The notes beneath the pieces are model-generated. The model saw nothing but the letters and a program-made list of their open reading frames with translations. It made no database searches and was not told where the DNA came from. The position numbers and the translations under genes were made by a program. From Geotalea uraniireducens Rf4 (lineage in GTDB: Bacteria > Desulfobacterota > Desulfuromonadia > Geobacterales > Geobacteraceae): a DNA stretch of 32,000 nucleotides. Positions 10,745-31,381 of this stretch are shown piece by piece (position 1 is the stretch's first letter; each line of letters opens with the position of its first letter). The stretch lies in NCBI RefSeq assembly GCF_000016745.1, contig NC_009483.1, positions 630,001 to 662,000 on the forward strand, given 5' to 3'.

Positions 10745-13700
10745 ATGAGCTTCAATGAAAACGCCAGAGTGAAAATACCGGCAATATTACATTTATGCCG
10801 TTTGGGCTATGACTACCTGTCGCTATCGGCAGCAATCCGTGATGAAAGCACCAATATTTTCACCGACCTGTTTTCTGAAAGCATCAGGCGCATCAATCCT
10901 GATCTTGAGGAAAGCGCAATAAAGCGGTTATTGGAAGATATTTCACTGATTCTGGATAATGAGGACCTGGGCGAAGCATTTTACCGGATGCTCACCGCTC
11001 GTTCTGGCGTGAAACTGATCGACTTCAATGACTTCAGCAACAACAGTTTTCACGTAGTAACTGAATTGACCTGCAAAAACGGCGATGACGAATTCCGACC
11101 GGATATCACGCTTTTGATCAACGGTATGCCCCTCGCTTTTATCGAAGTCAAAATACCGAACAATCAGGAAGGGATTCTCAAAGAACGGGACCGGATGCTT
11201 GTTCGTTTCCGGAACAAGAAGTTCCGGAAGTTCATCAATATTTCCCAGCTGCTGGTCTTTTCCAATAACATGGAATACGATCAGGACTCAGTTGAACCTA
11301 TCCAGGGAGCGTTTTACTCGTCTACCTCCACCGGTGACGTTCACTTCAACTGTTTCCGCGAAGAAGAACAGTTCGACCTGTCACAACTGCTGCAGCCGGA
11401 AGACAACGCCCGGGAAGACTTAGTCCTGAAGGACAACAATCTTAACGTCATCAAGCATTCACCGGAGTTCATCACCAACAAGGAACCCACCACCCCCACA
11501 AACCGGCTGCTCACCTCGCTGTTTAGCTGTAATCGTTTGGCAATGCTGCTTCAGTACGGTTTCGCCTACGTGCAGGAATCGAAGGGTGTTGAGAAGCATA
11601 TCATGCGCTATCCGCAACTGTTCGCCACCAAGGCGATCCAGCATAAGCTCGATAACGGCATCAAAAAGGGGATCATCTGGCATACCCAAGGAAGCGGCAA
11701 GACGGCGCTTTCCTATTACAACATCCACTACCTGACGGACTATTTTCAGCAGAAGGGAGTCATTCCCAAGTTCTATTTCATTGTTGACCGCATCGACCTG
11801 ATGGAACAGGCCAAACGGGAGTTTTCCATCAGGGGGCTGGTCGTCCATACCGTAAATTCCAGAGAAGAGCTGCTGAAAAGCTTTCGGGTGCGCAAGGCGA
11901 TTCACAACCTGTCCGGCAAGCGGGAAGTTACGGTCGTCAATATCCAGAAGTTCCAGGACGATACCCATCTGCTCCAGATGCAGGACTATGACATCGCTAT
12001 CCAGCGGGTCTATTTCCTCGACGAAGTGCACCGGAGCTACAACCCGAAAGGGAGTTTTCTGGCCAACCTTATCAGTTCAGATCGGGAGGCCATTCTCATT
12101 GGCCTGACCGGCACCCCTCTTATTATGGCAGACCGGAAGTCCAGGGATCTGTTCGGCGACTATATCCATAAATACTACTACAATGCTTCCATCGCCGACG
12201 GTTATACCCTGCGGCTGATCAGGGAAGGGATTGAGACCAACTACAAAATCCAGTTGGAGCAAGCGCTGAAGGAAGTGGAAATTCTCAAAGGTGATGCGGA
12301 TAAGCGGGTGATTTTTGCCCACGAAAAATTCGTTGAACCGATGCTGGATTATATCGTCGAGGATTTCATCAACAGCAGAATCCGCCTGGGGGATCACACC
12401 ATCTGCGGCATGGTGGTCTGCGATAGTGCCGAGCAGGCTCGCAGGTTGTTCGACATCTTTATCGCCAAGTACAATCCTGATCAGAAAACGGTCGAAGATG
12501 TTTCAACGGAGTATCTCAAGGTCGCCGAACCGGTTGTCGCCTATGGGGAGTATCTGAACAAGCGGAAAAGCAGACTGACCGCCTCGCTGATCCTGCATGA
12601 CGTTGGCTCAAAGGATGACCGCAAAGACGAAGTAGAGGATTTCAAGGAAGGCAAGATCGATTTTCTTTTTGTCTATGGTATGCTCCTGACCGGCTTTGAC
12701 GCCAAGCGCCTGAAAAAGCTTTATCTTGGTCGGATTATCAAGGATCACAACCTGCTGCAAACCCTTACTCGGGTCAATCGACCGTATAAAAAGTTCCGCT
12801 ATGGTTTCGTGGTTGATTTTGCCGACATCCGCAAGGAGTTTGACGCCACCAACAAGGCATATTTCGAGGAATTACAGGAGGAGCTTGGTGATGAAATCGG
12901 GACCTACTCCAACCTGTTCAAGACCAAGGAAGAGATTGACGACGAGATCAGCGACATCAAGGAAAAGCTGTTCCACTACGACCTGACAAACGCTGAAATT
13001 TTTTCACAGCAGATCAGCCGGATAGAAGACCGGAAAACAATGCTGGAGATCAAGAAGGCTCTGGAGAATGCCCGCAACCTCTACAACATCATCCGACTCC
13101 TCGGCCATTTCGAACTGCTGGAACATACCGACTTCAATAAACTGAACCAGCTTTATCGAGAGGCGGTTCGGCACCTGGAGCTGCTGAGTCTGAAGGAATC
13201 GGTACAGAACAATGTCGATGCCACTAACCTGCTGAATGTGGCCCTGGAAAACGTGCTCTTTATGTTCCGCAAGGTTTCGGAAGAAGAACTGATTATTGCA
13301 GACAAGCTGAAGGACATGCTGCGCAAGACCAGGGAAGCGCTGGGGAATAACTTCGACCGGAAAGACCCGGAATTTGTTTCCCTTTACGAAGAACTAAAGC
13401 GGCTTTTTGGCAAGAAGAATCTGGACGAAATAACCCAGGACGAGATGAAGCGAAATATCGGCTCGTTGCAGCAAATTTTTGATAAAGTGACCGAGCTGAA
13501 CCGCAGGAACAACCTGCTAAAAGCGAAGTACGAGAACGACGCCAAATATGCCCGCATTCACAAACGGTTGGTGGAGAAGGGAACTGTCTCAAAACGGGAA
13601 AGCGCCATCCATGCCACCTTGATGGGCATAAAAAAACAGGCTGACGATCAGGTGTTGTTGAATGCCAAGATGCTTGAGAACGAGGCCTATTTCGACCAAA

Positions 13701-13831
13701 AACTTATGCAAATGGTAATCGGCGGCTTCGGCAAGGCAAAGATCAACCTCGATCCGGAGAGTGCCCATTTCATCAACTCCTGCGTGACGCGGGAGTATCT
13801 TAACGAATACCGGGGAGTAGCTGCGTGGTAG
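10745..13831 (+). CDS. hsdR: type I restriction endonuclease subunit R
   Basis: 1028 aa. N-terminal nuclease-type region (PDITLLINGMPLAFIEVK). SF2 helicase motif I HTQGSGKTA and motif II DEVHRS. Later motifs LTGTP and VVCDS, plus a long helical C-terminus. First gene of the hsd operon. Confidence 0.95.
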   Translation: MSFNENARVKIPAILHLCRLGYDYLSLSAAIRDESTNIFTDLFSESIRRINPDLEESAIKRLLEDISLILDNEDLGEAFYRMLTARSGVKLIDFNDFSNNSFHVVTELTCKNGDDEFRPDITLLINGMPLAFIEVKIPNNQEGILKERDRMLVRFRNKKFRKFINISQLLVFSNNMEYDQDSVEPIQGAFYSSTSTGDVHFNCFREEEQFDLSQLLQPEDNAREDLVLKDNNLNVIKHSPEFITNKEPTTPTNRLLTSLFSCNRLAMLLQYGFAYVQESKGVEKHIMRYPQLFATKAIQHKLDNGIKKGIIWHTQGSGKTALSYYNIHYLTDYFQQKGVIPKFYFIVDRIDLMEQAKREFSIRGLVVHTVNSREELLKSFRVRKAIHNLSGKREVTVVNIQKFQDDTHLLQMQDYDIAIQRVYFLDEVHRSYNPKGSFLANLISSDREAILIGLTGTPLIMADRKSRDLFGDYIHKYYYNASIADGYTLRLIREGIETNYKIQLEQALKEVEILKGDADKRVIFAHEKFVEPMLDYIVEDFINSRIRLGDHTICGMVVCDSAEQARRLFDIFIAKYNPDQKTVEDVSTEYLKVAEPVVAYGEYLNKRKSRLTASLILHDVGSKDDRKDEVEDFKEGKIDFLFVYGMLLTGFDAKRLKKLYLGRIIKDHNLLQTLTRVNRPYKKFRYGFVVDFADIRKEFDATNKAYFEELQEELGDEIGTYSNLFKTKEEIDDEISDIKEKLFHYDLTNAEIFSQQISRIEDRKTMLEIKKALENARNLYNIIRLLGHFELLEHTDFNKLNQLYREAVRHLELLSLKESVQNNVDATNLLNVALENVLFMFRKVSEEELIIADKLKDMLRKTREALGNNFDRKDPEFVSLYEELKRLFGKKNLDEITQDEMKRNIGSLQQIFDKVTELNRRNNLLKAKYENDAKYARIHKRLVEKGTVSKRESAIHATLMGIKKQADDQVLLNAKMLENEAYFDQKLMQMVIGGFGKAKINLDPESAHFINSCVTREYLNEYRGVAAW

Positions 13832-15450
13832 CACGGGATTTTACTGCAAAAACGAAAGAACTGATCGATAACCTCAAAGGGGTCTGTGCCTCATACGGCT
13901 TGGGAAACGACGGTAATGAGTTCAAAATCATTACCCAGGTCTTTCTCTACAAATTCATGAATGACAAGTTCGGCTACGAGGTGAAGGAGATGGAGCCGAA
14001 GCTGAAAAAAGCCGCCATATGGGAACAGGAGATCGCCAAGTATTCGGACAAGGATTACGAGATGCTGCTCTTGAAGATGAGCCCGGACAGCGCCCGGCTG
14101 AAGCGGGAGCATTTTCTTCCCCGGCTGCACAACCGCCAGAACGAGGGGGAGTTTGCCAAACTCTTCGACGACACCCTGCGGGACATCGCCATTTTCAACA
14201 ATGACATTTTCTCGGTCAAGACCGGCACCGGCGCCAAGGTGACCCTGTTCGACGAGCTATCCAACTTCATCACCGATAGTTCTCGACGCGACGACTTCTG
14301 CCGCGCCATCATCACTCAATTAATACCTTTCAGCTTCGAGAAAATCTTCCACCAGAAGTTAGACTTCTTCTCCACCATCTTCGAGTACCTGATCAAGGAC
14401 TACAACAAGGACGGCGGCGGCAAATATGCCGAATACTACACCCCCCATGCCGTGTCAAAAATCATGGCTGCCATCCTGGTGGACAAACCGGTGAAAAATG
14501 TCACCTGTTACGACCCCTCGGCCGGGTCCGGCACCCTGCTCATGAATCTGGCACATGCCATCGGCGAGGACCGCTGCACCATCTACTCCCAGGACATCTC
14601 GCAAAAATCCACCAGCATGCTGCGACTCAACCTGATCCTGAACAACCTGGTCCACTCCATCCAGAACATCATCCAGGGCAACACCATGCTGACGCCGTAT
14701 CACAAGAGCGGCGACAAGCTGATGACCTTTGATTACGTCGTCTCCAATCCGCCGTTCAAGCTGGATTTCAGCGACTTCCGCAACGACCTGGAGACCAAGC
14801 AGAACCGAGACCGCTTCTTTGCCGGCATCCCCAAGATTCCCAACAAGGATAAGGACAAGATGGCCATCTATCTGCTCTTTATCCAGCACATCATGTTTTC
14901 CCTCTCTGCCAAGGGGAAAGCCGCTATCGTCGTCCCCACCGGTTTCATTACCGCCCAGAGCGGCATCGAAAAGAAGATCCGGGAAAAGCTGGTTGTGGCA
15001 AAGATGCTGCGGGGAGTGGTTTCCATGCCGAGCAATATCTTTGCCACCACCGGCACCAATGTGTCGGTGCTCTTTCTGGATAAGACCAATACCAAGGGAG
15101 ACATCGTCTTGATGGACGCCTCCAAGCTTGGGACTACGGTCAAGGAGGGGAAGAACCAGAAGACCGTTCTGTCAGTGGCAGAAGAAGAGCTGATTATCAA
15201 GACGTTCAACGACCACAAGGCGGTTGAGGATTTCACCGTGGTGGTTTCCTATGAGCAGATTAAGGAGAAGAACTATTCGCTGAGTGCCGGGCAGTACTTT
15301 GATGTGAAGATCGAATACACCGATATTACCCCGAAGGAATTTACCGCAAAGATGGCGGGGTACTGGAAGAATCTTGATCAACTGTTCGGCGAGTCACAAA
15401 AGCTGGAAAAGGAGATAAAGAAGCAGTTGGTGGGGTTGAAGTATGAGTAA
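13825..15450 (+). CDS. hsdM: type I R-M N6-adenine DNA methyltransferase subunit M
   Basis: GTG start overlapping the hsdR stop by 7 nt. HsdM N-terminal helix (IITQVFLYKFMNDKF). AdoMet motif I YDPSAGSGTLL and catalytic motif IV VVSNPPF. Confidence 0.95.
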   Translation: MVARDFTAKTKELIDNLKGVCASYGLGNDGNEFKIITQVFLYKFMNDKFGYEVKEMEPKLKKAAIWEQEIAKYSDKDYEMLLLKMSPDSARLKREHFLPRLHNRQNEGEFAKLFDDTLRDIAIFNNDIFSVKTGTGAKVTLFDELSNFITDSSRRDDFCRAIITQLIPFSFEKIFHQKLDFFSTIFEYLIKDYNKDGGGKYAEYYTPHAVSKIMAAILVDKPVKNVTCYDPSAGSGTLLMNLAHAIGEDRCTIYSQDISQKSTSMLRLNLILNNLVHSIQNIIQGNTMLTPYHKSGDKLMTFDYVVSNPPFKLDFSDFRNDLETKQNRDRFFAGIPKIPNKDKDKMAIYLLFIQHIMFSLSAKGKAAIVVPTGFITAQSGIEKKIREKLVVAKMLRGVVSMPSNIFATTGTNVSVLFLDKTNTKGDIVLMDASKLGTTVKEGKNQKTVLSVAEEELIIKTFNDHKAVEDFTVVVSYEQIKEKNYSLSAGQYFDVKIEYTDITPKEFTAKMAGYWKNLDQLFGESQKLEKEIKKQLVGLKYE

Positions 15451-16600
15451 GCCTGTCAATAAAAGATTGGGGGATATAGTCAACTTTAAGAGAGGTTATG
15501 ATTTACCATCCTATAAGCGCAAAGAAGGCCCATATCCCATCGTAAGCTCTTCCGGAATATCTGGCTATCATGCTGAATATAAAGCCAAAGGAGAAGGATT
15601 AATCACAGGCCGATACGGTACACTTGGCGAAATGTACTATGTGAATGGCAAATACTGGCCCCATAATACGGCACTATATGTTACTGACTTCAAAGGGAAT
15701 TATCCGAAGTATGTCTACTTTCTTTTAAAATGCCTCGGTAGTTTAAAAACGTCAGATAAGAGCACTGTTCCAGGTGTTAACAGAAATGATTTGCATGAAT
15801 TACTGGTTCCTTATATCAAGCCTGAACTTCAGAAACCTATTGCAGATTTTCTTTTCTTATTAGAATCAAAAATTGACCTCAACAACCGCATCAACTCCGA
15901 GTTGGAAGCTATGGCAAAAACGCTGTACGACTACTGGTTTGTGCAGTTTGATTTTCCCGACAAAAACGGCAAACCCTACAAATCCTGCAGTGGGAAGATC
16001 GTCTGGAACAAGGAGTTGAAGCGGGAGATCCCTGAGGGCTGGAAGGTTGGTTCATTACTCGACATTGCAGAGTACATCAATGGCTTACCGTGTCAGAAAT
16101 ATAGACCGATAGGAACTGATTTTTTATACGTCATTAAAATCAGAGAAATGCGCGACGGATTCACCAGCGAATCGGAACTGGTTAGACCTGATATCCCGCA
16201 AAAAGCAATCATTGAAAATGGCGATGTTCTTTTTTCATGGTCAGCTTCTTTGGAAGTACAAATCTGGACTGGCGGAAAAGGTGCATTGAATCAGCATATC
16301 TTCAAAGTAACATCGAAAAAGTATCCAAAGTCATTTTATTACTATCAACTAGTGAACTACCTCCAACATTTTAAAATGATGGCAGACAATCGCAGAACAA
16401 CAATGGGGCACATTACGCAGGACCACCTGAAACAAAGCAGAATTGTTTTACCTCCAATAGAATTAACTGAGAAACTCGAATGCAAACTTGGCCCCATCCG
16501 TACTGCAATCACAAGCAACCAATTAGCAAATAATACTCTTTCCTCTCTCCGGGACTGGCTCCTCCCCATGCTCATGAACGGCCAGGTGAAGGTGGGTTGA
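15443..16600 (+). CDS. hsdS: type I R-M specificity subunit S (two target-recognition domains)
   Basis: The ATG overlaps the hsdM stop (ATGAGTAA). It has the central conserved region LEAMAKTLYDYWFVQFDFPD and the C-terminal conserved region LSSLRDWLLPMLMNGQVKV, separated by two variable TRDs. Confidence 0.9.
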   Translation: MSKPVNKRLGDIVNFKRGYDLPSYKRKEGPYPIVSSSGISGYHAEYKAKGEGLITGRYGTLGEMYYVNGKYWPHNTALYVTDFKGNYPKYVYFLLKCLGSLKTSDKSTVPGVNRNDLHELLVPYIKPELQKPIADFLFLLESKIDLNNRINSELEAMAKTLYDYWFVQFDFPDKNGKPYKSCSGKIVWNKELKREIPEGWKVGSLLDIAEYINGLPCQKYRPIGTDFLYVIKIREMRDGFTSESELVRPDIPQKAIIENGDVLFSWSASLEVQIWTGGKGALNQHIFKVTSKKYPKSFYYYQLVNYLQHFKMMADNRRTTMGHITQDHLKQSRIVLPPIELTEKLECKLGPIRTAITSNQLANNTLSSLRDWLLPMLMNGQVKVG

Positions 16601-16647
16601 GTCAATCTGACAACGCCCTAAAAGGTACTTTTCCTATAGGAGTTACG

Positions 16648-18261
16648 ATGAAGAACGCGATTCTGAAACGCCTGAAAAGAACCGATCATCTGCCGATGCT
16701 GTTTATCGGTTCCGGCATGTCAATCCGCTATCTCGGCCTCGAAAACTGGAAAGGATTGCTGCGCAAGTTTGCCCGGCTGGCGACTGACAACGACTATGCC
16801 TATGAAATGTATGAGCAGCAGGCGAAAGGGCTGGAGTGCAAGGAAGGGCTGCTGCCGAAGGTGGCGGAACTTATCGAGCGGGATTTCAACCTGGGTTGGT
16901 TCAAGGACGATCAGTTTAGGGAGAGCCGGGAACAGTCGACGGATGAGATAAACCGTTCCGTCTCGCCGTTCAAGATCGAAATCGCCCGATACATGCGCGA
17001 CAAGAGCCGGCAGCATAACGCCGAGTATGCTGCTGAAATTGAACTGTTCAAGCAGCTTGAAATGCGCAGCATCGGCGGGGTGCTGACGACAAACTACGAC
17101 AGTTTCATCGAGGACCTCTTCACCAGCTACACGAAATACATCGGCCAGGAAGAACTGCTCTTTTCCACACTGCACGGCATTTCCGAAATCTACAAGATTC
17201 ATGGCTGCTGTACGAAGCCGGAATCCATCGTCATTAATGAAGCTGACTATGCCGACTTTTCGGAAAAGAACGCCTACCTGGCGGCAAAGATTCTCACCAT
17301 ATTCCTTGAACATCCCATCGTGTTCATCGGTTACTCCATCAATGACACCAACATCGAAAATATCCTGAAATCAATCATCAAATGTCTTTCCCCCGAAAAT
17401 CTCGACAAGATCAGAGAGCGGCTCATGTTTGTTGAGCGGGCAAGAGAAGGGGTGCCGGAGGAGGTTTCCACCTACAGCAAGTCGTTTGAAGGTGGCAAGT
17501 CCATTGATATGACGCGTATCCGCCTGAAGAACTACGAGGTCTTGTATCAGGCCTTACTGGAAAACCAGGCAAAATATAATGCCCCGATGCTGCGACGCTT
17601 GAAGCAGGACATTTACGAGCTGGTGTTGACGAACAAACCGACTGGTAAGATCAGGACCGTCAACCTGGAAGATGAAAAGCTGGAAGATGTTGAGGTGGTG
17701 ATAGGGGTCGGAATCCCTTCAGATTTCGGTCAGAAGGGGTATGCGGGGATTACGGCAGAAGATATTTACGCCGATGTCGTTTTCGATGACAGAGAGTATG
17801 AAGTCGACAGGATTGTCACAACAACGTTGCCGTCACTGCTACCAACCAACAGCATTCTCCCGATGCACAAATATATATCCCAATACACTGGAGAACTCCC
17901 GATTAATCCGGATAAAATCATCAAAGATTTTGATGGATTCATCGCCTCGTCAATCAAGAAGAACCGGGAGCGGAGCGGTTACAGAAACGAAACAATAAGT
18001 TCGTTACGGCGTAAATGGTCATTGGAGAGGTGCTTGTATGCTCTTCAGTTTCTAAAGGAAGAAAACATCGATCCTGCGGAACTCCTTGACTTGATAAAGG
18101 GTGTAATTGAAGCCAATCCGTCGGCTCTTTCAACCGCTGAAAGGGATAAACAGAATCTCAAATCCGATATAAAAAGAGCCATCCGGATTTACGATTGGCT
18201 CAGATACCACAAAAACAAAGGAGCCCTAGCTGCAGCGGCCACGAACTGTCCACCTTGCTAG
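16648..18261 (+). CDS. SIR2-family (SIR2_2-like) putative NAD+-consuming effector with uncharacterised C-terminal domain
   Basis: ATG at 16648 with an AGGAG RBS 5 nt upstream, preferred over the TTG at 16597. Motifs in order: LFIGSGMS (Gly-rich NAD loop), LTTNYD (catalytic Asn), IYKIHGC (catalytic His), VFIGYSINDTNI. This resembles the ThsA/DSR-type SIR2 layout. The C-terminal ~250 aa has no motif I recognise. Same strand as hsdS, 47 nt downstream, with no terminator between. Confidence 0.8.
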   Translation: MKNAILKRLKRTDHLPMLFIGSGMSIRYLGLENWKGLLRKFARLATDNDYAYEMYEQQAKGLECKEGLLPKVAELIERDFNLGWFKDDQFRESREQSTDEINRSVSPFKIEIARYMRDKSRQHNAEYAAEIELFKQLEMRSIGGVLTTNYDSFIEDLFTSYTKYIGQEELLFSTLHGISEIYKIHGCCTKPESIVINEADYADFSEKNAYLAAKILTIFLEHPIVFIGYSINDTNIENILKSIIKCLSPENLDKIRERLMFVERAREGVPEEVSTYSKSFEGGKSIDMTRIRLKNYEVLYQALLENQAKYNAPMLRRLKQDIYELVLTNKPTGKIRTVNLEDEKLEDVEVVIGVGIPSDFGQKGYAGITAEDIYADVVFDDREYEVDRIVTTTLPSLLPTNSILPMHKYISQYTGELPINPDKIIKDFDGFIASSIKKNRERSGYRNETISSLRRKWSLERCLYALQFLKEENIDPAELLDLIKGVIEANPSALSTAERDKQNLKSDIKRAIRIYDWLRYHKNKGALAAAATNCPPC

Positions 18262-24115: not shown

Positions 24116-24296
24116 TAGCTTTACCTCGGAACTTCTTAACTTAAATATCACGTTTGTCCAGCTCAGGCAAGGGGTTTGTCCTTGCCGTGGGGGAGGGGTG
24201 AAGCTAAAACGGAGGGGCGAACGAAGGTGGACTGTCCTGATGTGTGAATGGTGCGATTACCCCTTGTTTTTCCTGTTAAAAAAATATTAATACTGG

Positions 24297-24447
24297 CTGA
24301 CTCCCTTTTGGGGGCGGGTGTACAAAGATGGGGGCTTTTATTTCATGCGTATTGTTATGGGAGTCGGGGGATGGTTGGAGCAGTGGCAAATATATAGAAT
24401 GTAGTTGAAGCCGCCGGGTCAGGGATATGCTGATTGGTGGCTTTTTT
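24297..24447 (+). ncRNA. candidate sRNA module, copy 1 (promoter-like element + ~115-nt transcript + intrinsic terminator)
   Basis: CTGACT (24297-24302), 18 nt, TACAAA (24321-24326). Terminator stem GCCGCCGGGTCAG/CTGATTGGTGGC at 24410-24441 with G-U pairs, then TTTTTT at 24442-24447. Homologous to the copies at 25448 and 27728. Similarity also extends upstream to ~24240 with copy 3. Confidence 0.45.
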
Positions 24448-24548
24448 GATTTCGGGGGTAAGTGTTGTACGCTTCCGGAAATTACGAATAAAGCAGAGGT
24501 GATCGGCGTGTGGAGAGAATACAGCGGAGAAAATAGTTGAAGAATGTT

Positions 24549-24769
24549 TCAGCGTTGTCCGGTTTGGTTTTTGCTTACGTCCCGTAGGGACAGAATACTG
24601 GTAGCCGGGGAATTCATTCCCCGGTCATCCAGGCGAAATATCATCACGTCACGTACGTGACGTGGGGAAATATAGCATCTCATCCGGGGGATGAATCCCC
24701 CGGCTACATTCGAACGCCCCTAATGGGGCTTAACAACCTTGATGCACAAACCAAACCGGACAACGCTGA
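24549..24769. mobile_element. 221-bp MITE with 22-bp perfect terminal inverted repeats and 7-bp target-site duplication
   Basis: TCAGCGTTGTCCGGTTTGGTTT at 24549-24570 and its exact reverse complement at 24748-24769. Flanking direct repeat GAATGTT at 24542-24548 and 24770-24776. The interior is one long imperfect palindrome centred on CACGTCACGTACGTGACGTG, with matching sub-hairpins in both arms. Confidence 0.8.
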
Positions 24770-24953
24770 GAATGTTTATATGTTAAACCTGACCTTCCAG
24801 TTTTTCTCTCCAGTTTTTCCTCGATTTTTAATGGCAATAGGTAAGGGAATCTGGTAAAACTTTGAATGGATAGGGTTTGCAGCAGTTGTCGGAAAGATGT
24901 CTGCCTTGGCTTGTCCAGGCAAAGAAGCAGCGGACGCGGGAAGGAGCCACGTG

Positions 24954-25163
24954 ATGAAAAGAGAATATACCGTTATTATCGAACAGGATGAGGCCGGATT
25001 TTACGTGGCCGAGGTGCCTGAGCTGTATGGCTGCCACACCCAGGCCAAGTCGCTTGATGAACTGATGGAGCGAGTGCGCGAAGCAATTGAGCTCTGCCGG
25101 GAAGAGGACAAGGGGAAACGCCCACGGAAACACCTGATCGGCATACAGAGAATCGCCGTATGA
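24954..25163 (+). CDS. hicB: type II antitoxin, HicB family
   Basis: ATG at 24954 with an AAGGAG RBS 7 nt upstream. YTVIIEQDEAGFYVAEVPELYGCHTQAKSLDELMERVREAIELC matches the HicB/UPF0150 N-domain consensus. Confidence 0.8.
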   Translation: MKREYTVIIEQDEAGFYVAEVPELYGCHTQAKSLDELMERVREAIELCREEDKGKRPRKHLIGIQRIAV

Positions 25164-25402
25164 CCCGGTTCCCTGCTCTGGAGGGGAAAGAGGTTGTCGC
25201 GGTACTGGTGAAGTACGGTTTTGTCGTTGACCGGCAACGAGGCAGTCATTTCTTCCTGAAACATGCTGACGGCCGGGCGACGGTCGTTCCAATCCATGCG
25301 GGCGAGAACATCGGCCCCGGTCTGTTCGCCAAGATTCTTCGTGACGTTGAACTTACCAGGGAAGATTTTCTCAAGGACAAAAAACGGAAACCGAAGATGT
25401 GA
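25160..25402 (+). CDS. hicA: type II toxin, HicA family mRNA interferase
   Basis: ATGA overlap with hicB. LEGKEVVAVLVKYGFVVDRQRGSHFFLKH.DGR.TVVPIH matches the HicA (YcfA-like) consensus, including the catalytic GSH. Confidence 0.85.
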   Translation: MTRFPALEGKEVVAVLVKYGFVVDRQRGSHFFLKHADGRATVVPIHAGENIGPGLFAKILRDVELTREDFLKDKKRKPKM

Positions 25403-25447
25403 ACATTCCCGATCCCCGATCCCCGTTTTAAATATTATTAATACTGG

Positions 25448-25595
25448 TTGACTCCTTGTTGGGGGCGGGTGTACAAAGGTGGGGCTTTTATTTCATGCGT
25501 ATTGTTATGGGAGCCGGGGGATGGTTGGAGTAGTGACAAAAGTATTGTGCAGTTGAAGCCGCTGGGTCAGAAATATACTGATTGGCGGCTTTTTT
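25448..25595 (+). ncRNA. candidate sRNA module, copy 2
   Basis: TTGACT (25448-25453), 18 nt, TACAAA (25472-25477). Terminator GCCGCTGGGTCAG/CTGATTGGCGGC at 25558-25589, then TTTTTT. Similarity with copy 3 continues downstream into a 34-codon ORF (25617-25721). Confidence 0.45.
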
Positions 25596-25859
25596 GTTGG
25601 GTGGGGAAGAGGAGGCATGGCGGTGAAGGTTGATCTTTCGAGGCTGACTGGTGATTTGTCTTGTGTCGAGGCAGACCCCTTCTCTTGCCTGAAGACCCCA
25701 TTGAAATTGATCCGGAGATAATAAGTAGATTGGGGGGTGTGGAACCAAGATGAAGTGTCCGAAAATATCGGACAGTTGAAAATGTCTCTTTTGTTCTTAT
25801 AGCGGACGAGTGGAAAATTCGCGGAATTTGACACCATCACACACCAAAGGCTACCTTAC

Positions 25860-26687
25860 ATGAGCAAAGCAAAAAAGAGTACCATCGAGGTTCAGGGATC
25901 GTCCATTAGCATCCTTTCGCAACAAGGAGAGGACTATATTTCGCTCACCGACATGGTGCGGAACTTTGATGGCGGAGGCGCGCTGATTGAGCAGTGGCTC
26001 AAGAACAAGGACACAGTCCTGTTCCTCGGTGTCTGGGAACGTATCAATAACCCCGATTTTAATTCCCTCGAATTCGAGGGAATTAAAAATGAGGCTGGCC
26101 GGAACAGCTTTTTCCTGTCTGCCAAAAAATGGATCGAACTTACTGGAGCCAAAGGGCTGATCGCGAGAGCAGGCCGCTACGGTGGTACTTACGCTCACCG
26201 CGACATTGCTTTTGAGTTCGGTTCGTGGCTAAGTCCGGAGTTCAAACTCTACCTCATAAAGGAATTTCAGCGTCTCAAGGAGGATGAAAATCGCCGCCTG
26301 TCGCTCGCCTGGAATTTGAATCGCACCCTTTCCAAGCTTAACTATCGTATCCACACCGATGCGATCAAGGCGCATCTGGTTCCAGCTGCAGTAACCGCCT
26401 CGCAGGCCACCATCATCTACGCCCACGAAGCGGACGTGCTTAATGTTGCTCTCTTCGGCCAGACAGCCAAACAGTGGCGGGATACCAACCCCGAGATGGA
26501 AGGCAACATGCGCGAGTACGCCACTATTGAGCAATTGCTGGTGCTGGCCAATATCGAGGGAATGAATGCCGAACTCATTCACATGGGACTGTCGCAAGGG
26601 GAACGCCTCAAGCGTCTCAACGCAATAGCCATTCGCCAGATGCAGGTGCTTACTTCTGCGGCTGCGATTAAACAACTTAAGGAATAA
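25860..26687 (+). CDS. KilA-N domain-containing protein
   Basis: ISLTDMVRNFDGG..LIEQWLKNKDT..FLGVWE...GTYAHRDIAFEFGSWLSPEFKLYLIKEF is the KilA-N DNA-binding domain pattern. The C-terminal half is helical. Confidence 0.85.
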   Translation: MSKAKKSTIEVQGSSISILSQQGEDYISLTDMVRNFDGGGALIEQWLKNKDTVLFLGVWERINNPDFNSLEFEGIKNEAGRNSFFLSAKKWIELTGAKGLIARAGRYGGTYAHRDIAFEFGSWLSPEFKLYLIKEFQRLKEDENRRLSLAWNLNRTLSKLNYRIHTDAIKAHLVPAAVTASQATIIYAHEADVLNVALFGQTAKQWRDTNPEMEGNMREYATIEQLLVLANIEGMNAELIHMGLSQGERLKRLNAIAIRQMQVLTSAAAIKQLKE

Positions 26688-26690
26688 CCC

Positions 26691-26822
26691 ATGCTCGACA
26701 GCGATGCCAAACTCCGCATTGACACCGCCCGAGATATCCTCGTCGGCAAGAGGTCTGACCTGAATGGCATAGTGGAGAGTAGTCAACTGGTAATAAACTG
26801 TTACCGGTTAAATGACCGCTGA
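26691..26822 (+). pseudogene. remnant of a second type I methyltransferase (hsdM) N-terminus
   Basis: A 43-codon ORF. Its first ~20 aa, MLDSDAKLRIDTARDILVGK, match my memory of the N-terminus of a class of type I R-M M subunits that often follow KilA-N genes. The sequence then diverges and stops. Confidence 0.45.
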
Positions 26823-26848
26823 GAACGGCAAACAGGAAGAAACCGACA

Positions 26849-26940
26849 GTGTCAGGTCTCCACTTATGACATTGTCACAGGTGGAGACCTGGCACCCATG
26901 TGGCCTCTGACACCCATGTGGTGACACCCATGTGGCCTCT
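26849..26940. repeat. 15-nt-arm inverted repeat followed by three tandem (T)GACACCCATGTGG(CCTCT) units
   Basis: GTGTCAGGTCTCCAC at 26849-26863 versus GTGGAGACCTGGCAC at 26881-26895 (1 mismatch). The CACCCATGTGG core occurs at 26893, 26911 and 26924. The array ends at the TTG start of the ORF6N gene. Confidence 0.75.
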
Positions 26941-27470
26941 TGCTACCTGTAGAAACAATCCAGGATAAAATTCTCCTGCTGCGCGGGCAGAAAGTCATGC
27001 TGGATGAGGATTTGGCGGAGCTGTACGGGGTGGAGACCAAGGTTTTGAATCAGGCGGTTAAACGCCACTCCAAGAGATTTCCCCCCGATTTCATGTTTCA
27101 GTTGAGCGAAGAGGAATATACCGAGTCGACAGCTTTAAGGTCACAATTTGTGACCTTAAAGAAAGGGCGAGGCTCACATCGGAAGTATCTGCCGTATGCC
27201 TTTACCGAGCAAGGAATTGCCATGCTCTCCGGCGTTCTCAACAGCGACCGGGCCATCGAAGTGAACATCCTTATCATGCGGGCGTTCGTGAAGCTCCGGG
27301 AGATGATCGCGTCCCACAAGGATTTAGCGAAAAAGCTGGATGAACTGGAAATGAAGTACGACGCTCAATTCGCCATAGTTTTTGATGCCATGCGGCAGAT
27401 CATGACGCCACCGGAACCGAAGCGGAAGAAGATAGGGTTTGTAAAGGAAGAGAAAAATAAAGCTGATTAG
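26940..27470 (+). CDS. ORF6N domain-containing protein (KilA-N-related DNA-binding)
   Basis: [49 protein letters not shown] is the ORF6N signature. The only in-frame start is the TTG at 26940, so the start is uncertain. Confidence 0.8.
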
Positions 27471-27499
27471 TACGAATGTTCCGCAACTCCGAAAATACT

Positions 27500-27604
27500 C
27501 CCTCCCCCTTGATGGGGGAGGGCTGGGGTGGGGGTGCAACCAGCTGATTTTTAATGTCTCATTTTGCCCCCTCCCCCCTGCCCCCTCCCATCTAAGGGAG
27601 GGGG
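27500..27604. repeat. C/G-tract palindromic hairpins (REP-like)
   Basis: CCCTCCCCC-TTGAT-GGGGGAGGG at 27500-27522 and CCCCCTCCC-ATCTAA-GGGAGGGGG at 27581-27604. Same style as the hairpins at 1824-1877. Confidence 0.7.
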
Positions 27605-27727
27605 AGAAGAATGGAGCGGAAGATTAGTTCTAATCAGGAAAATAAATAACCGAGGTTGCTCGATGCCGCCACGAGGCGTCGTAGTGTGAACCCTTTGTTT
27701 TTGCTGTTAAAAAAGCATTAATACTGG

Positions 27728-27877
27728 TTGACACCTTGTTGGGAGCGGGTGTACAAAGGTGGGGCTTTTATTTCATTCGTATTGTTATGGGAGTTGGGGG
27801 ATGGTTGGAGTAGTGGCAAATATATAGAGTGTTGTTGAAGCCGCCGTGTCAGGGATATGCTGATTGGTGGTTTTTTT
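27728..27877 (+). ncRNA. candidate sRNA module, copy 3
   Basis: TTGACA (27728-27733), 18 nt, TACAAA (27752-27757). Terminator GCCGCCGTGTCAG/CTGATTGGTGG at 27840-27870, then TTTTTTT. Followed by a 34-codon ORF (27898-28002). Confidence 0.45.
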
Positions 27878-28177
27878 ATTAAGTGGGAAGAAGAGACATG
27901 GCGGGGAAGGGTGACCTATTGAGGCTAGCTGGAGATTTGACCTGTGTCTTTACTATTAAAAGCGATCTTTTGAAATTTGACAGCGTCAAAAGGACCCAAT
28001 AAAAATGGATGACTTATCTCCTTCTGATTTAAAAACAATCATGCACTCCAAACGGGTGGTCAAGCCGATTTGACTGGACAGTGATTCCGGTTTTGTCTGG
28101 ACAGGGTTTCCGATTTTAACTGGACAGTGGTTTTCTTCTGTTCTTTCTGTCGTGGTTGTGGTTTCAGGGTGTCCAGT

Positions 28178-28918
28178 TTACTTGTTCTTTGACAACAGTT
28201 TTCGCATCGATTCTCCTTTCATGGTGATCATGTGTGCATTGTGAACCAGCCTGTCCAGTACTGCATCGGCAATGGTGGGATCACCGATGGCGTCGTGCCA
28301 TTTTTCCGTGGGGATCTGGCTGGCGATGATGGTTGAGGTGATGCCGTGTCGGTCTTCCAGAACCTCCAGGATGTCCCGGCGTTCTTTGTCGTTGAATTTA
28401 GCCAGACCCCAGTCATCAATAATCAGAATCGCATACTTGGCGAGACGGGTCAGCAGCTTGCCGTAGCTGCCGTCCCCCCTGGCTATGTGTAACTCTTGGA
28501 GCAGTCGCGGTAACCGGATGTAGTGGGCGCTGTGACCGTTACGGCAGGCGCTGTTGGCCAGAGCGCAGGCAATGAAGGTTTTGCCGCTGCCGGTGGGTCC
28601 GGTAATGATGACATTCTGTTTCCCCTTTACCCAACTGTTCTGCATCAGAGAGAGGACAACATCTTTGGCAAGGCCCCGTGGTGTCCGGAAGTCGATCTCC
28701 TCTGGACAGGCGCTGGCGTAGCGAAGCCTTGCTCCCCGCAGCAGATTAGTCAGTCGGCGGTTGTCCCGCAGGGTCATTTCCCGGTCAACAAGCATTCCCA
28801 GGCGCTCTTCGAAGGAGAGTCCGGTGTAGATGGTGCTCTGGGTCTGCTCGGTCAAGGCCTCGGCCATGCCGGAGAGTTTGAGCTGGTTCAGTTTGCCGAG
28901 GGTCATTTCCAACATCAT
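28178..28918 (-). CDS. istB: IS21-family helper ATPase IstB
   Basis: Walker A GPTGSGKT, Walker B LIIDDWG, and the C-terminal AVLDRLVHNAH motif. ATGA overlap with istA. Confidence 0.95.
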   Translation of the reverse strand: MMLEMTLGKLNQLKLSGMAEALTEQTQSTIYTGLSFEERLGMLVDREMTLRDNRRLTNLLRGARLRYASACPEEIDFRTPRGLAKDVVLSLMQNSWVKGKQNVIITGPTGSGKTFIACALANSACRNGHSAHYIRLPRLLQELHIARGDGSYGKLLTRLAKYAILIIDDWGLAKFNDKERRDILEVLEDRHGITSTIIASQIPTEKWHDAIGDPTIADAVLDRLVHNAHMITMKGESMRKLLSKNK

Positions 28919-30471
28919 TGGACACCTCCCGCAAAGTACTCGCTCCCTCTGACGTTGTCATGGAGCAGCGGCAGTGACTCCTCGTCATCCTTCGGTATGT
29001 CGGCTGTTTCGAGACCTTTATCCAGGATATTCTTGACGCAGTGGTAGCCGATGGCCTGGAGCTTGAGCGCCCGGTCGCAGGCCAGTTCCAGTCGGCCATC
29101 GCCGTACCTTGTAGCCAGTCTCAAGAGCCCCAGGCAGCGGCGGTAGGCCTGATCGGGATGAGCCGCTGTCCGGATGATGGCTTCGATCATTGCGCCGGTT
29201 TGCGCACCGATGCTTTCTCCCCAGCGCCGCATCCTCTCCGGGGTCCACTTCAGGTACTGTTGGTGACTGGGGGGACGATGGGCTTCCAGGGTAATATAGA
29301 CATTCTTCTTGTGGGTGCGGGCATGGGACGCAACGCGCTTGCCGTCATGGAGGATGGCTACCATTGTGGCAGTGATACAGACCGTCACTTCCTTGCCAAT
29401 CAGCGTATAGGGCACGCTGTAAAAAGAGCCCTGCACCGCCACATGGTAGTCAATGTGGACTTTGGCTTTCTTCCAGTCTTGCAGCAGAAACCGCTGTGCG
29501 GGCAAAGCCTTCAGCGCCGGTTGGTCAATCTCGGCAAAGAGTTGGTTTCTCGATTTGCCGACCCCCTGCATGGGGCGGTCGTTCAGTTTCTCCAGCTCCA
29601 CAGCAATGGCGTCGTTCAGCTCCGCCAGCGAGAAGAAGGTGCGATTACGCAGGGCCGCCAGTATCCGCCGTTGGGCGATGAGGACGCTGTTTTCCACCTT
29701 GGCCTTGTCGCGGGGTTCACGGGGCCGGGCGGGGATCACTGTCACGCCGTAGTGGGCACAGAGTTCAGCGTAAGCCGGATTGATTTCCGGGTCATACTTG
29801 CAGGAGGTCTTGACCCCCGACTTCAGTTGATCCGGAACCACAACGGCTGGAACGCCGCCAAAGTATTCGAAGGCGCCGATATGCGCCATGGTCCAGTCGG
29901 GGATCTGCTGACTGGCGACCGCCACGGCAAAAATCCGGGAACTGGCTCCCAAGGCCGCGACAAACAGTTCCGGCACAACAACTTCACCGGTCTCACGGTC
30001 AACATATGAGGGGCGATCTCCGGAGAAATCGACGAACAGTTTCTCCCCGGCCTTGTGATCGAAGCGCATGACCGGATCTAGTCTCTTGCCGTGCTTCTGG
30101 TAAAGTTCGCAGAACTGGCTGCGGCTATAGCCGTCAGGATGGATTGACCGGTATTCTTCCCAGAGAAGTTGAAGGGTTACCCCTTTTTTCTTCATCTCCA
30201 GGCGCAGATAATCAAAGTCGGGAAGAGGCTTGCGAGAAGGAGCGCCACGACCTTCGGTGTAGAGACGAGTTTTCAAAGAACTGTCGTCAAGGGCAGAAAT
30301 GGCGGCCCAGGCCAAGCCTGATCGTTTGATGCGCTCCAGGTAATCGCCGACGGTCGTGGGAGAAACTGCACAGGCCCGGGCAATGGCCCGCCTGCTCAGG
30401 TCGTGCTCAAAATGGAGTCTTAGAATTTCACGTGCTGTTCTCATTGATTTCTTTCTGCCTTTCTTCACCAT
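28915..30471 (-). CDS. istA: IS21-family transposase IstA
   Basis: Start trimmed to the ATG at 30469-30471 (MVKKGRKK..REILRLHF..LSRRAIARA, an HTH), with GGAGG upstream. The DDE integrase-type core runs from DFSG..., and a C-terminal region typical of IstA follows. Confidence 0.9.
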   Translation of the reverse strand: MVKKGRKKSMRTAREILRLHFEHDLSRRAIARACAVSPTTVGDYLERIKRSGLAWAAISALDDSSLKTRLYTEGRGAPSRKPLPDFDYLRLEMKKKGVTLQLLWEEYRSIHPDGYSRSQFCELYQKHGKRLDPVMRFDHKAGEKLFVDFSGDRPSYVDRETGEVVVPELFVAALGASSRIFAVAVASQQIPDWTMAHIGAFEYFGGVPAVVVPDQLKSGVKTSCKYDPEINPAYAELCAHYGVTVIPARPREPRDKAKVENSVLIAQRRILAALRNRTFFSLAELNDAIAVELEKLNDRPMQGVGKSRNQLFAEIDQPALKALPAQRFLLQDWKKAKVHIDYHVAVQGSFYSVPYTLIGKEVTVCITATMVAILHDGKRVASHARTHKKNVYITLEAHRPPSHQQYLKWTPERMRRWGESIGAQTGAMIEAIIRTAAHPDQAYRRCLGLLRLATRYGDGRLELACDRALKLQAIGYHCVKNILDKGLETADIPKDDEESLPLLHDNVRGSEYFAGGVQ

Positions 30472-30682
30472 AGCCTCCGGAAAGTTTTTCCGAAGATGGT
30501 AGATGATGTGACAGGAAGATGAAAAAAAGTTAGTCCGGAAAAGATTGGACACCTATTCCGGAAATCCCGAAAAAGTGTCCAGTTAAAACCGGAATCGGTG
30601 TCCATTCAAAACCGGAATGACTGTCCAACCTTTTCCGGAATTGGTGTCCAGTTTATATCGGAATCGGTGTCCAGTTTACTCC

Positions 30683-31381
30683 GGATTTTGCATCCTGCAT
30701 ACCTGGACAAGAGCTCTGGAGCACCATCCCCACGTGCATATGCTGGTCCCCGCCGGCGGACTTGATAAAGACGGCCAATGGCGGGAGTCCCGCAAGAAGT
30801 ACCTCGTGCCGGTGAAAGCCCTGTCAAAGGGCTTTCGCTACCGGTTCATGAAGATGGCCAGAAAAGCACTTCCCGAGGTGATCTTTCCTGGGCAAGTCTG
30901 GGACAAGGAGTGGGTGGTCTTCTGCAAACCGACCTTCAACCGGGCAAAAAAGGTGTTCCATTACCTTGGCAGATACGTCCACCGCATCGCCATTACCAAT
31001 AACCGTATTCTTGCCCTGGATAACGGTCAGGTCGTCTTCCGCTACCAGAATTCCGACACCAGAGAGTGGAAGAATATGCGGCTACCGGTAAAGGAGTTCC
31101 TGCGTCGCTACCTGCAGCACGTCCTGCCGCAGGGGTTTCACAAGGTCCGCTACTACGGACTTTTAAGTCCAGGAAATAGAGTAACCCTGAAACGGTTGCA
31201 GCTCCTGCTTGCAGAGAGAAGAAAGACAAAAGAAGAAAAGAACGAAGAGACTTCTCCGCCACCGGCAGAGCGCCGCTGTCCCTGCTGTGAAGAGGGGACA
31301 ATGGTGATAATCAGCTGGCTGCCGCGTAAAGCGAGAAGCCCGCCGCAAGGAAGGGCACGGACAATAACGACAAAACAGTGA
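30683..31381 (+). pseudogene. 5'-truncated IS91-family (Y2-type) transposase gene
   Basis: Homology starts abruptly at GFCILHTWTRALEHHPHVHMLVPAGGL...YLGRYVHRIAITNNRIL, which is the central and C-terminal part of IS91/Y2 transposases. The N-terminal zinc-binding part is missing. The upstream part of ORF 30617..31381 is read-through of the IS21 terminal repeats. Confidence 0.75.

Follow-up and report, generated by a model that had tools for sequence, protein, structure and literature searches.

A repeated, probably leader-like unit at the head of defence and toxin–antitoxin cassettes in a narrow Geobacter lineage

Why does one short non-coding segment recur between unrelated accessory gene cassettes? 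The question is raised by a stretch of the Geotalea uraniireducens Rf4 chromosome (NC_009483.1, positions 630,001 to 662,000; 32,000 nucleotides (nt), called the window from here on), where three copies of the segment separate a hicBA toxin–antitoxin pair, a KilA-N/ORF6N cassette and an insertion sequence of the IS21 family. An initial annotation, made from the sequence alone, read the copies as an unannotated small RNA (sRNA) or attenuator-leader family that is duplicated with, or brought in by, each cassette. It offered accretion at a resident sRNA locus and an integron-like cassette boundary as alternatives. The reading that we favour, with a probability of about 0.5, is that the segment is both a cis-acting leader and a homology anchor, in a unit that stands at the head of defence and toxin–antitoxin cassettes in one uncultured Geobacter clade.

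Repeat finding and MAFFT alignment place three direct, co-oriented copies of a non-coding unit in the window, at ~24259–24447, ~25424–25690 and ~27690–27957. Each unit is ~200-300 bp and is made up of a promoter-like element, a body of ~117 nt and a strong predicted terminator. The starts lie 1150/1151 and 2280 bp apart, and the copies appear as two overlapping direct-repeat families with three copies each. Mean column identity is 82% over the ~300 columns of the alignment, with long invariant runs; from the -35 hexamer to the T-run, the copies are 87–90% identical among themselves. The 16-mer GGGGCTTTTATTTCAT is found three times in the window, compared to 0.34 occurrences expected, and a covariance model of the family, described below, scores the three copies at 146-147 bits (E~1e-34). 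The architecture initially reported, three near-identical segments with a -35-like hexamer, an 18-nt spacer, TACAAA and a hairpin followed by 6-7 T, is borne out by the sequence. Its starts of 24240 and 27683 need correction, as homology between copies 1 and 3 begins at 24259 and 27690. The parts of the units are listed here; L-numbered loci are DNA stretches retrieved for comparison, and L001 is from a Geobacter sp. metagenome-assembled genome (MAG).

24259..24296 (+): upstream extension of unit 1, pyrimidine-rich then A/T-rich, ending CCTGTTAAAAAAATATTAATACTGG; its start is where homology with copy 3 and with L013a, L001, L007, L010, L011 and L012 begins
24297..24326 (+): promoter-like element of unit 1 (CTGACT 24297-24302, 18 nt, TACAAA 24321-24326)
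24331..24447 (+): predicted RNA body of unit 1, with hairpin P1 (GGCUUUUAU/AUGGGAGUC), G-rich stretch 24366-24380, A/U-rich linker, terminator hairpin 24407-24444 (+) and T-run 24442-24447; model score 147 bits
24448..24860 (+): type-A downstream leader, common to L013a and L001 by alignment, with a 219-bp miniature inverted-repeat transposable element (MITE) inserted
25424..25477 (+): A/T tract and promoter-like element of unit 2 (TTGACT 25448-25453, TACAAA 25472-25477); CCCGATCCCCGATCCCCG precedes
25481..25597 (+): predicted RNA body of unit 2, with G-rich stretch 25516-25530, terminator 25555-25591 and T-run 25590-25595; 146.3 bits
25598..25690 (+): type-B extension of unit 2, non-coding, containing GAAGAGGAGGCATGGCGGTGAAGGTTGATCTTTCGAGGCTGACTGGTGATTTGTCTTGTGTCGAGGCAGACCCC; found in 10+ copies
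27671-27684: small hairpin ACGAGGCGTCGTAG just before unit 3, common to L011 and L012
27690..27757 (+): upstream extension and promoter-like element of unit 3 (TTGACA 27728-27733, TACAAA 27752-27757)
27761..27878 (+): predicted RNA body of unit 3, with G-rich stretch 27796-27810, terminator 27837-27873 and T-run 27871-27877; 146 bits
27879..27957 (+): type-B extension of unit 3, breaking off at ...TGTGTC; the IS21 copy and its flank lie beyond

In all three copies, the A/T-rich tract ends ATTAATACTGG. Copies 2 and 3 share an additional ~80–90 nt of non-coding homology past the terminator (type B); the conserved extension of copy 1 is another one (type A). The MITE inside the type-A leader occupies 24550-24768, has terminal inverted repeats (CAGCGTTGTCCGGTTTGG... 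/ ...CCAAACCGGACAACGCTG) and is bounded by a 9-bp target duplication, AGAATGTTT, at 24541-24549 and 24769-24777. It is absent from L013, which comes from a 98% identical strain, and from L001. Both of its arms match the Rfam family Acido-Lenti-1 just below threshold (36.3 and 32.8 bits, compared to 37).

The unit does not behave as a coding sequence. The short open reading frame (ORF) inside the body had been described as not conserved, and this was confirmed: its ATG is lost in copy 3 (ATT), L008a and L013b, the stop position varies, and the frame is broken by 1-nt insertions in L011 and L018, a 1-nt deletion in L008a and a 2-nt deletion in copy 2. A second candidate, the ORF of the type-B extension (MAVKVDLSR...), was also rejected. 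Its variable columns are spread 11/12/12 over the codon positions, its ratio of synonymous to nonsynonymous changes (12:42) is no better than that of other frames, and in L004 and L006a a deletion has removed its start. On its minus strand, the unit shows no ORF of more than 2 codons, and it has no conserved short hydrophobic ORF of the kind that marks type I toxin–antitoxin repeats. The family is also unannotated as a non-coding RNA. Rfam 15 gave no match at the gathering threshold in the whole window and none at E<=10 that overlaps any copy (24150-28100), and ARAGORN found no tRNA or tmRNA. Literature searches turned up papers on Geobacter "multicopy nucleotide sequences" and nothing matching the unit.

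What the unit would encode is a structured RNA on the plus strand. Predictions by RNAalifold and by folding each copy agree on a 5' hairpin (P1, with family consensus GGCUUUUAU / AUGGGAGYC), an unpaired G-rich stretch, an A/U-rich linker and a terminator. The G-rich stretch, GGGGGAUGGUUGGAG, is invariant, contains GGA motifs and is predicted to be unpaired over its 15 nt. The terminator hairpin (GAAGCCGCYGKGTCAG / CTGATTGGYGGYTT, then 6-7 T in the window copies) has the form of an intrinsic terminator, with a 15-pair stem interrupted by one bulge, a 7-nt loop and 6-7 U; 99.6% of its cells pair across 19 copies. It includes four G·U pairs that on the minus strand would become A·C and fail to pair, so the hairpin is specific to plus-strand RNA, as had been claimed. 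A simple terminator scan does not report this hairpin, probably because of the bulge in its stem. Over both stems, 99.5% of cells in the 19 copies form standard pairs. Eight stem columns vary, and the recurrent changes are all C<->U or A<->G, which are compatible with wobble pairing. The full-length minimum free energy (MFE) is -31 to -34 kcal/mol, with z about -2.1 to -2.4.

Conservation follows the same parts. Among 18 copies, TTGACa and GGGGGCGGGTGTACAAAGGTGGGGC hardly change, and variation is seen in the upstream flank and in the spacer's 5' half. The -35 hexamer, the 3' half of the spacer, TACAAA, a G+C-rich discriminator, both stems and the G-rich stretch are likewise near-invariant, with variable sites clustered in the linker and in the loops of P1 and the terminator. 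In the second hexamer, TACAAA, T1 and A2 are present and the final T (T6) is absent. Other readings of this region were rejected: the GG and GC elements of a sigma-54 promoter at CTGGTTGAC...TTGT are not conserved among copies, and LexA-box and XerCD/dif readings of the A/T tract are poor matches by eye.

The family extends beyond the window, within limits. An exact pattern that fixes 22 bases of the invariant core matched one of 185,579 species-representative genomes, the Geobacter sp. MAG that provides L001. A looser pattern, used for metagenomes, returned at least 17 loci with 14 true copies. Three of those loci (L003, L005 and L019) were chance matches, as was the only match in a scan of viral contigs (L002). 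A covariance model built from 15 copies added tandem copies in L006, L008 and L012 and one copy in L025. Altogether there are at least 19 distinct copies at 136–161 bits, except for one truncated copy at 97 bits, and at least 7–8 of them come from one metagenome. Tandem arrays hold three copies in the window and two each in L006, L008, L012 and L013/L020. As far as the core pattern goes, the family is confined to a narrow Geobacter lineage. Some copies are incomplete. L008 (as stored, +, ~990-1095) holds a degenerate unit in which the upstream flank and TTGACAC are followed by a type-B-like extension (TGACCTTTGCGGGTGTATTAAC...GGGATTTGTCCCGTGTCAATGGAGACCC), with the whole RNA body and terminator missing. 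In L004 and L006a, the type-B extension is missing its first ~35 nt, with identical endpoints.

Where the units sit was examined at the left edge of the array. Copy 1 has on its left a core gene of the Geobacteraceae, which carries the annotation "GPMC system MBL fold metallohydrolase" (the MBL gene below), and the same junction in relatives is as follows.

L013/L020/L021: MBL gene 98% identical in nt (measured on L020); two units; hicBA and a protease cassette adjoin
L025: MBL gene 84% identical in nt; one unit; entirely different cargo
L023, L027: MBL gene 75–76% identical in nt; no unit; a glycosyltransferase gene adjoins
L024: MBL gene 78% identical in nt; no unit; an α/β-hydrolase gene adjoins

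Homology to the intergenic DNA of the relatives stops at ~24190-24260, about 60–130 bp short of copy 1. It follows that the island opens with the unit, which is not a resident core sRNA gene. Units also come first at other island edges, both at the MBL locus (window, L013, L020 and L025) and after a core UPF0182 gene in L006, and no copy follows the last cassette of an array. This arrangement makes the unit the 5' element of each cassette and not a 3' element. Units are found at several unrelated loci: after UPF0182, after NrfD/Fer4 genes, beside the GPMC MBL gene and after hipBA/vapBC.

The genes downstream of the unit lie on its own strand at every locus, in ~15 independent contexts. Cargo was identified by Pfam and the defence-system search tool PADLOC, and the genes behind units 1 and 2 of the window are these.

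24897..25402 (+): cargo 1, hicB (24897-25163) and hicA (25160-25402), with Pfam matches HicB_lk_antitox and HicA_toxin
25860..27470 (+): cargo 2, KilA-N (25860-26687), a 43-codon fragment (26691-26822), a disrupted region and ORF6N (26940-27470)

PADLOC lists the KilA-N protein as candidate PDC-S22 and ORF6N as PDC-S05. At other loci, the cargo consists of RelE with a helix-turn-helix (HTH) antitoxin (L006 and L008), an AbiJ_NTD4/DUF7014 protein with an AAA protein (L006), a BglII-like protein with a 1059-aa metallophosphatase/TPR protein (L011/L015), a trypsin-like protease with DUF4062 and HATPase_c_4 proteins behind it (L013/L020), a DUF676 hydrolase (L009), or a cassette containing a reverse transcriptase (RT; L025). 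L016 carries a complete type I-B-like cas operon, with Cas8b (TM1802) and Cas7 followed by Cas5, Cas3, Cas1 and Cas4, the last four being assigned by reading their sequences. Genes upstream of units are often other toxin–antitoxin pairs (HipBA, PIN, HTH). The unit is thus linked to accessory defence and toxin–antitoxin cassettes. At the cas locus (L016 369-9758 / L007 3744-3870), the unit lies between core NrfD/4Fe-4S genes and the operon, and ~580 nt of unannotated DNA separate its terminator from cas8b. The RT of L025 (451-1881, -; 476 aa) lies behind the unit at the MBL-adjacent locus, and its best PADLOC matches are generic RT and UG17-type models; it may be a defence RT or a group II intron protein.

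The distance between unit and cargo is in some cases very short. In L011/L015/L018, the ribosome-binding site and GTG start of the BglII-like gene begin 17 nt past the T-run, and this reading frame is supported by the differences between L011 and L018, which fall mostly at third codon positions. In L012, the ORF6N start is 76 nt past the T-run. Since this leaves little room for a separate promoter, these two kinds of cargo probably depend on read-through from the unit. In every context, then, the unit lies upstream of its cargo, in the same orientation, and ends in a terminator, which is the placement of an attenuator leader. The initial proposal of an sRNA or attenuator-leader family brought in with each cassette fits this architecture, which recurs at cassette boundaries and travels with the downstream DNA.

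Exchange between copies is recorded in the 98% identical strain. L013/L020 lacks the whole KilA-N...ORF6N segment and has a hybrid unit, L013b, in its place, with flanks that are 98-99% identical. The upstream flank and promoter region of L013b, to about -25, match window copy 2, and from +32 through the terminator it carries 16 consecutive diagnostic sites of window copy 3. This is the outcome that would be expected from a crossover between copies 2 and 3, or from the reverse integration of a circle. The mapped crossover sits within the longest run of identical sequence, where homologous recombination would be expected to place it. Upstream flanks of three types and downstream sequences of four (A, B, C and D) are combined in many ways across the family, and gene fragments remain beside some units, such as a C-terminal piece of the BglII-like gene in L009 and a 5' piece in L018. 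No integrase, resolvase, tyrosine recombinase or serine recombinase was found in the window or the annotated island loci, and no Phage_integrase-family protein is present among the scanned window ORFs or in L020, L021 or L025. There is no RYYYAAC...GTTRRRY pair with complementary arms on either strand of 24150-28100. The only attC candidate from the regular-expression and arm-complementarity search, in or next to the MITE, has 9/25 arm matches and was rejected as spurious. With neither an integrase or resolvase nor an attC-like site, homologous recombination is the simplest mechanism.

Based on these data, the following model can be proposed for a cis-leader that is also a homology anchor. A sigma-70-like promoter (TTGACa, 18 nt, TACAAA) would start a transcript that folds into P1, an exposed G-rich stretch, an A/U-rich linker and a strong intrinsic terminator. 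Most transcripts would stop at the terminator, producing an RNA of ~117 nt, and the fraction that reads through would form the mRNA leader of the cargo behind the unit. In this way the unit could shield its cassette from transcription that arrives from upstream and also set, or gate, the expression of the cassette. Because one ~200-300 bp block heads many cassettes, the comparisons show it acting as portable homology as well; recombination between copies inserts, deletes and reshuffles cassettes and yields short tandem arrays.

Several observations weigh against this model. A simple consensus promoter scan does not call the element of the unit, because its -10 hexamer has no final T. The substitutions between copies do keep the pairing, as the initial annotation stated (C<->U opposite G), but they are one-sided wobble changes only: the 19 copies contain no compensatory pair, and no covariation measure rises above shuffles. 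Covariation therefore gives no support, which can be attributed to the copies being too similar. A strand-specific RNA structure is plausible, and beyond the terminator it rests on thermodynamics and wobble-only changes. The RelE/HTH cargo of L006/L008 comes with its own good promoter; the unit is thus not a requirement for every kind of cargo. The single recombinant, L013b, shows that recombination happens and not that the unit is maintained for it. Conservation is also no higher than that of core coding genes. From the -35 hexamer to the T-run, copy 1 shares 99% identity with its orthologue in the 98% strain and 81% with the one in L025, where the core coding genes are 84% identical. The unit is thus conserved about like coding sequence, in intergenic surroundings that quickly become unalignable; it is not ultra-conserved, nor are its paralogues strongly homogenised.

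Regulation of the read-through is a further weak point. When the transcript is folded without the 3' arm of the terminator, its 5' end, UGGGGCUUU, which resembles that arm, pairs with GAAGCC-G-CCG in the MFE structure of 13/18 copies, and the sequences are compatible with this alternative antiterminator (94.4% paired), against which P1 would serve as an anti-antiterminator. The pairing has no covariation support and is not above controls. The truncated transcript folds no more stably than shuffled sequences (MFE z about 0); the specific end-to-arm pairing alone is uncommon, arising in 1.1% of shuffles, in a comparison made post hoc. The terminated fold is favoured over it by ~10 kcal/mol. That read-through is regulated is therefore a hypothesis, and leak-through alone may explain what reaches the cargo.

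A bolder version, which we consider rather improbable, would make the family an integrase-independent, integron-like cassette system in which one transcribed module is both expression gate and anchor for anti-phage and toxin–antitoxin cassettes and a G-rich sensor switches all of them on together. A cellular or phage factor would bind the G-rich stretch, which is Shine-Dalgarno-like and has GGA motifs, and open P1. The freed 5' end would then pair with the 5' arm of the terminator.

Another possible explanation, less probable than the cis-leader and anchor and still to be taken seriously, is that the units are multicopy "sibling" genes for a trans-acting sRNA with no cis role. Here, the G-rich stretch would pair with C/U-rich targets or titrate an RNA-binding protein, and the position in islands would merely reflect where new DNA accumulates. 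The stretch could equally well serve as the seed in pairing with trans targets or as the place where a protein binds. The unit does have what such a gene needs: a promoter-like element of its own, a body of ~117 nt, a U-tailed terminator and an invariant stretch of 15 nt with GGA motifs that is predicted to be single-stranded. The greater stability of the terminated fold and the presence of a separate promoter in front of some cargo also favour this explanation. It does not account for the co-oriented cargo directly downstream in all ~15 independent contexts, or for the two cargo types that begin 17 and 76 nt past the T-run. Nor would the conserved type-A and type-B extensions past the terminator be expected of an independent sRNA gene. 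In addition, the reverse complement of the G-rich stretch, searched for in the window and retrieved loci, had no match outside the units, so that no complementary target was found in this DNA.

Since the cassettes are 0.8-2.3 kb long, rich in toxin–antitoxin pairs and parted by repeats in the same orientation, as in chromosomal integrons, the unit could instead contain the site recognised by a recombinase that is encoded elsewhere, as part of a cassette system that is integron-like or otherwise site-specific. Two further observations fit: small tandem duplications at the end of type B in L004 and L008b, and a GTTRRRY-like GTTGGGT after the T-run in ~8 copies. We consider this improbable. Neither copies 1 and 3 nor those of types A, C and D have GTTGGGT, the unit stands at the 5' end of the cassette and at the island edge, and the single mapped crossover falls in the longest identical stretch. 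The integron-like boundary initially suggested is not borne out, as neither R''/R' attC cores nor their palindrome was found in 24150-28100, and neither intI nor any other integrase in or beside the islands examined. The duplications themselves are ~23 nt long and lie exactly where type-B homology ends: AGGGCAGACCCCTTCTCTTCTGCT occurs twice in L004 (~850-905, oriented) and AAGGCCAGACCCTTTGGTTTGTA twice in L008b (~2880-2925, oriented). They could mark a preferred breakpoint.

The other alternative of the initial annotation was that integrative elements, each with its own copy of the target, had accumulated in tandem at one resident sRNA gene. This would explain the arrays with their duplication of whole units, and also why the MBL-adjacent locus holds different cargo in the window and L013 than in L025, with each cargo opening with a unit. 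Nevertheless, it is very improbable: the units are at several unrelated loci, the relatives at 75-78% nt identity have no unit at their empty MBL locus, and the cassettes are just 0.8-2.3 kb and carry no integrase. Finally, the notion that the unit is the end of a known insertion sequence, MITE or prophage, or a small protein-coding gene, has next to no claim on belief, since, although IS21 follows copy 3, the region is rich in mobile elements and gene callers report a 31-aa ORF in the type-B extension of L025, an insertion sequence adjoins window copy 3 only, no terminal inverted repeats or target duplications bound the unit, blastn in distant mode found no match in 50,697 phage and 72,556 plasmid records, and both ORFs failed the coding tests described above.

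Other elements were noted around the copies. A G/C-rich long palindrome of ~110 nt (27497-27607) lies between the ORF6N stop and unit 3 and draws many spurious matches to miRNA precursors. It looks like an inserted hairpin similar to a repetitive extragenic palindrome or a MITE, because the orthologous junction in L012 does not have it. The 5' end of ORF6N is replaced in the window relative to L012. The 43-codon ORF after KilA-N had been called an hsdM remnant; this label was not verified, as the ORF has no Pfam match and only a weak 13-residue match to the HsdM of the window. Past it, three direct copies of GRCACCCATGTGG occur at about 26890-26940. Beyond unit 3, an IS21 copy lies within 28070-31381 (IstA 28915-30552, IstB 28178-28918), with several terminal repeats of the TGTCCAG type at ~28070-28126 and 30534-30690. 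Behind it comes a partial transposase ORF of the IS91 family (Y2_Tnp; 30617-31381), which is probably a remnant interrupted by IS21. Together they cut off whatever followed unit 3.

The window has a second variable hotspot, 10745-18261, between a YkuD gene and a sigma-54 activator. It carries a type I restriction-modification system (HsdR, HsdM and a probable HsdS) and a SIR2-domain protein, and L020 has a ParE/HTH toxin–antitoxin pair at the same place. The covariance model found no copy of the unit in this hotspot; thus, not every hotspot in the genome uses it.

If the cis-leader and homology-anchor reading is true, the family represents a recombinase-free route by which defence islands can be built and reshuffled. 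A shared, transcribed leader would allow any gene behind it to be expressed and also to be exchanged through ordinary homologous recombination, and unrelated defence and toxin–antitoxin systems would come under one common cis element. On a minimal reading, the unit is an unannotated RNA family specific to a Geobacter lineage and a practical marker of the boundaries of accessory cassettes.

Four kinds of known system can be compared with the unit. Dispersed intergenic repeats that bring promoters or terminators include the Correia/NEMIS elements of Neisseria and BOX and RUP of pneumococcus. The unit is like these in being lineage-restricted, multi-copy and non-coding, within the 100-300 bp range, and they change the transcription of neighbouring genes. 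Unlike them, it has no terminal inverted repeats or target duplications, keeps a fixed orientation to the downstream genes and is found only in accessory islands. Multicopy sibling sRNAs with their own promoter and terminator include LhrC1-5, Qrr1-5 and OmrA/B. Several near-identical copies per genome, some in tandem, are found in both cases, as are a promoter-like element, a single-stranded stretch and a Rho-independent terminator. In contrast to sibling sRNAs, the copies of the unit are bound to the 5' boundary of variable cassettes and have conserved extensions past the terminator, and the conserved stretch is G-rich and Shine-Dalgarno-like rather than anti-Shine-Dalgarno.

Chromosomal integron arrays, such as those of Vibrio with VCR/attC sites, share with the unit species-specific repeats of ~120-300 bp that lie in one orientation and separate small cassettes, many of them toxin–antitoxin cassettes, with a content that varies between near-identical strains. 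Integron cassettes may also carry sRNAs or promoters, as seen with sRNA-Xcc1 and with ORF-less cassettes that have promoter activity (PMC8876359, PMC6557892). The unit differs from integrons in that it has no attC core sites or fold, no intI or attI was found, it heads the cassette rather than ending it, and it contains a promoter-like element and a terminator of its own. Its arrays are also short (2-3) and at several loci, and the one mapped exchange looks homologous.

Unlike attenuators and riboswitches, the unit places one leader before functionally unrelated cargo, with no ligand or sensor evident. Its putative antiterminator is not above controls, and it belongs to one narrow lineage and has no Rfam match. 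The order of its parts is nevertheless that of attenuators and riboswitch platforms: a promoter-like element, a structured leader, an intrinsic terminator and co-oriented genes, some of which begin 17-76 nt past the T-run. As in attenuators, a possible competing helix with the 5' arm of the terminator is predicted within the unit.

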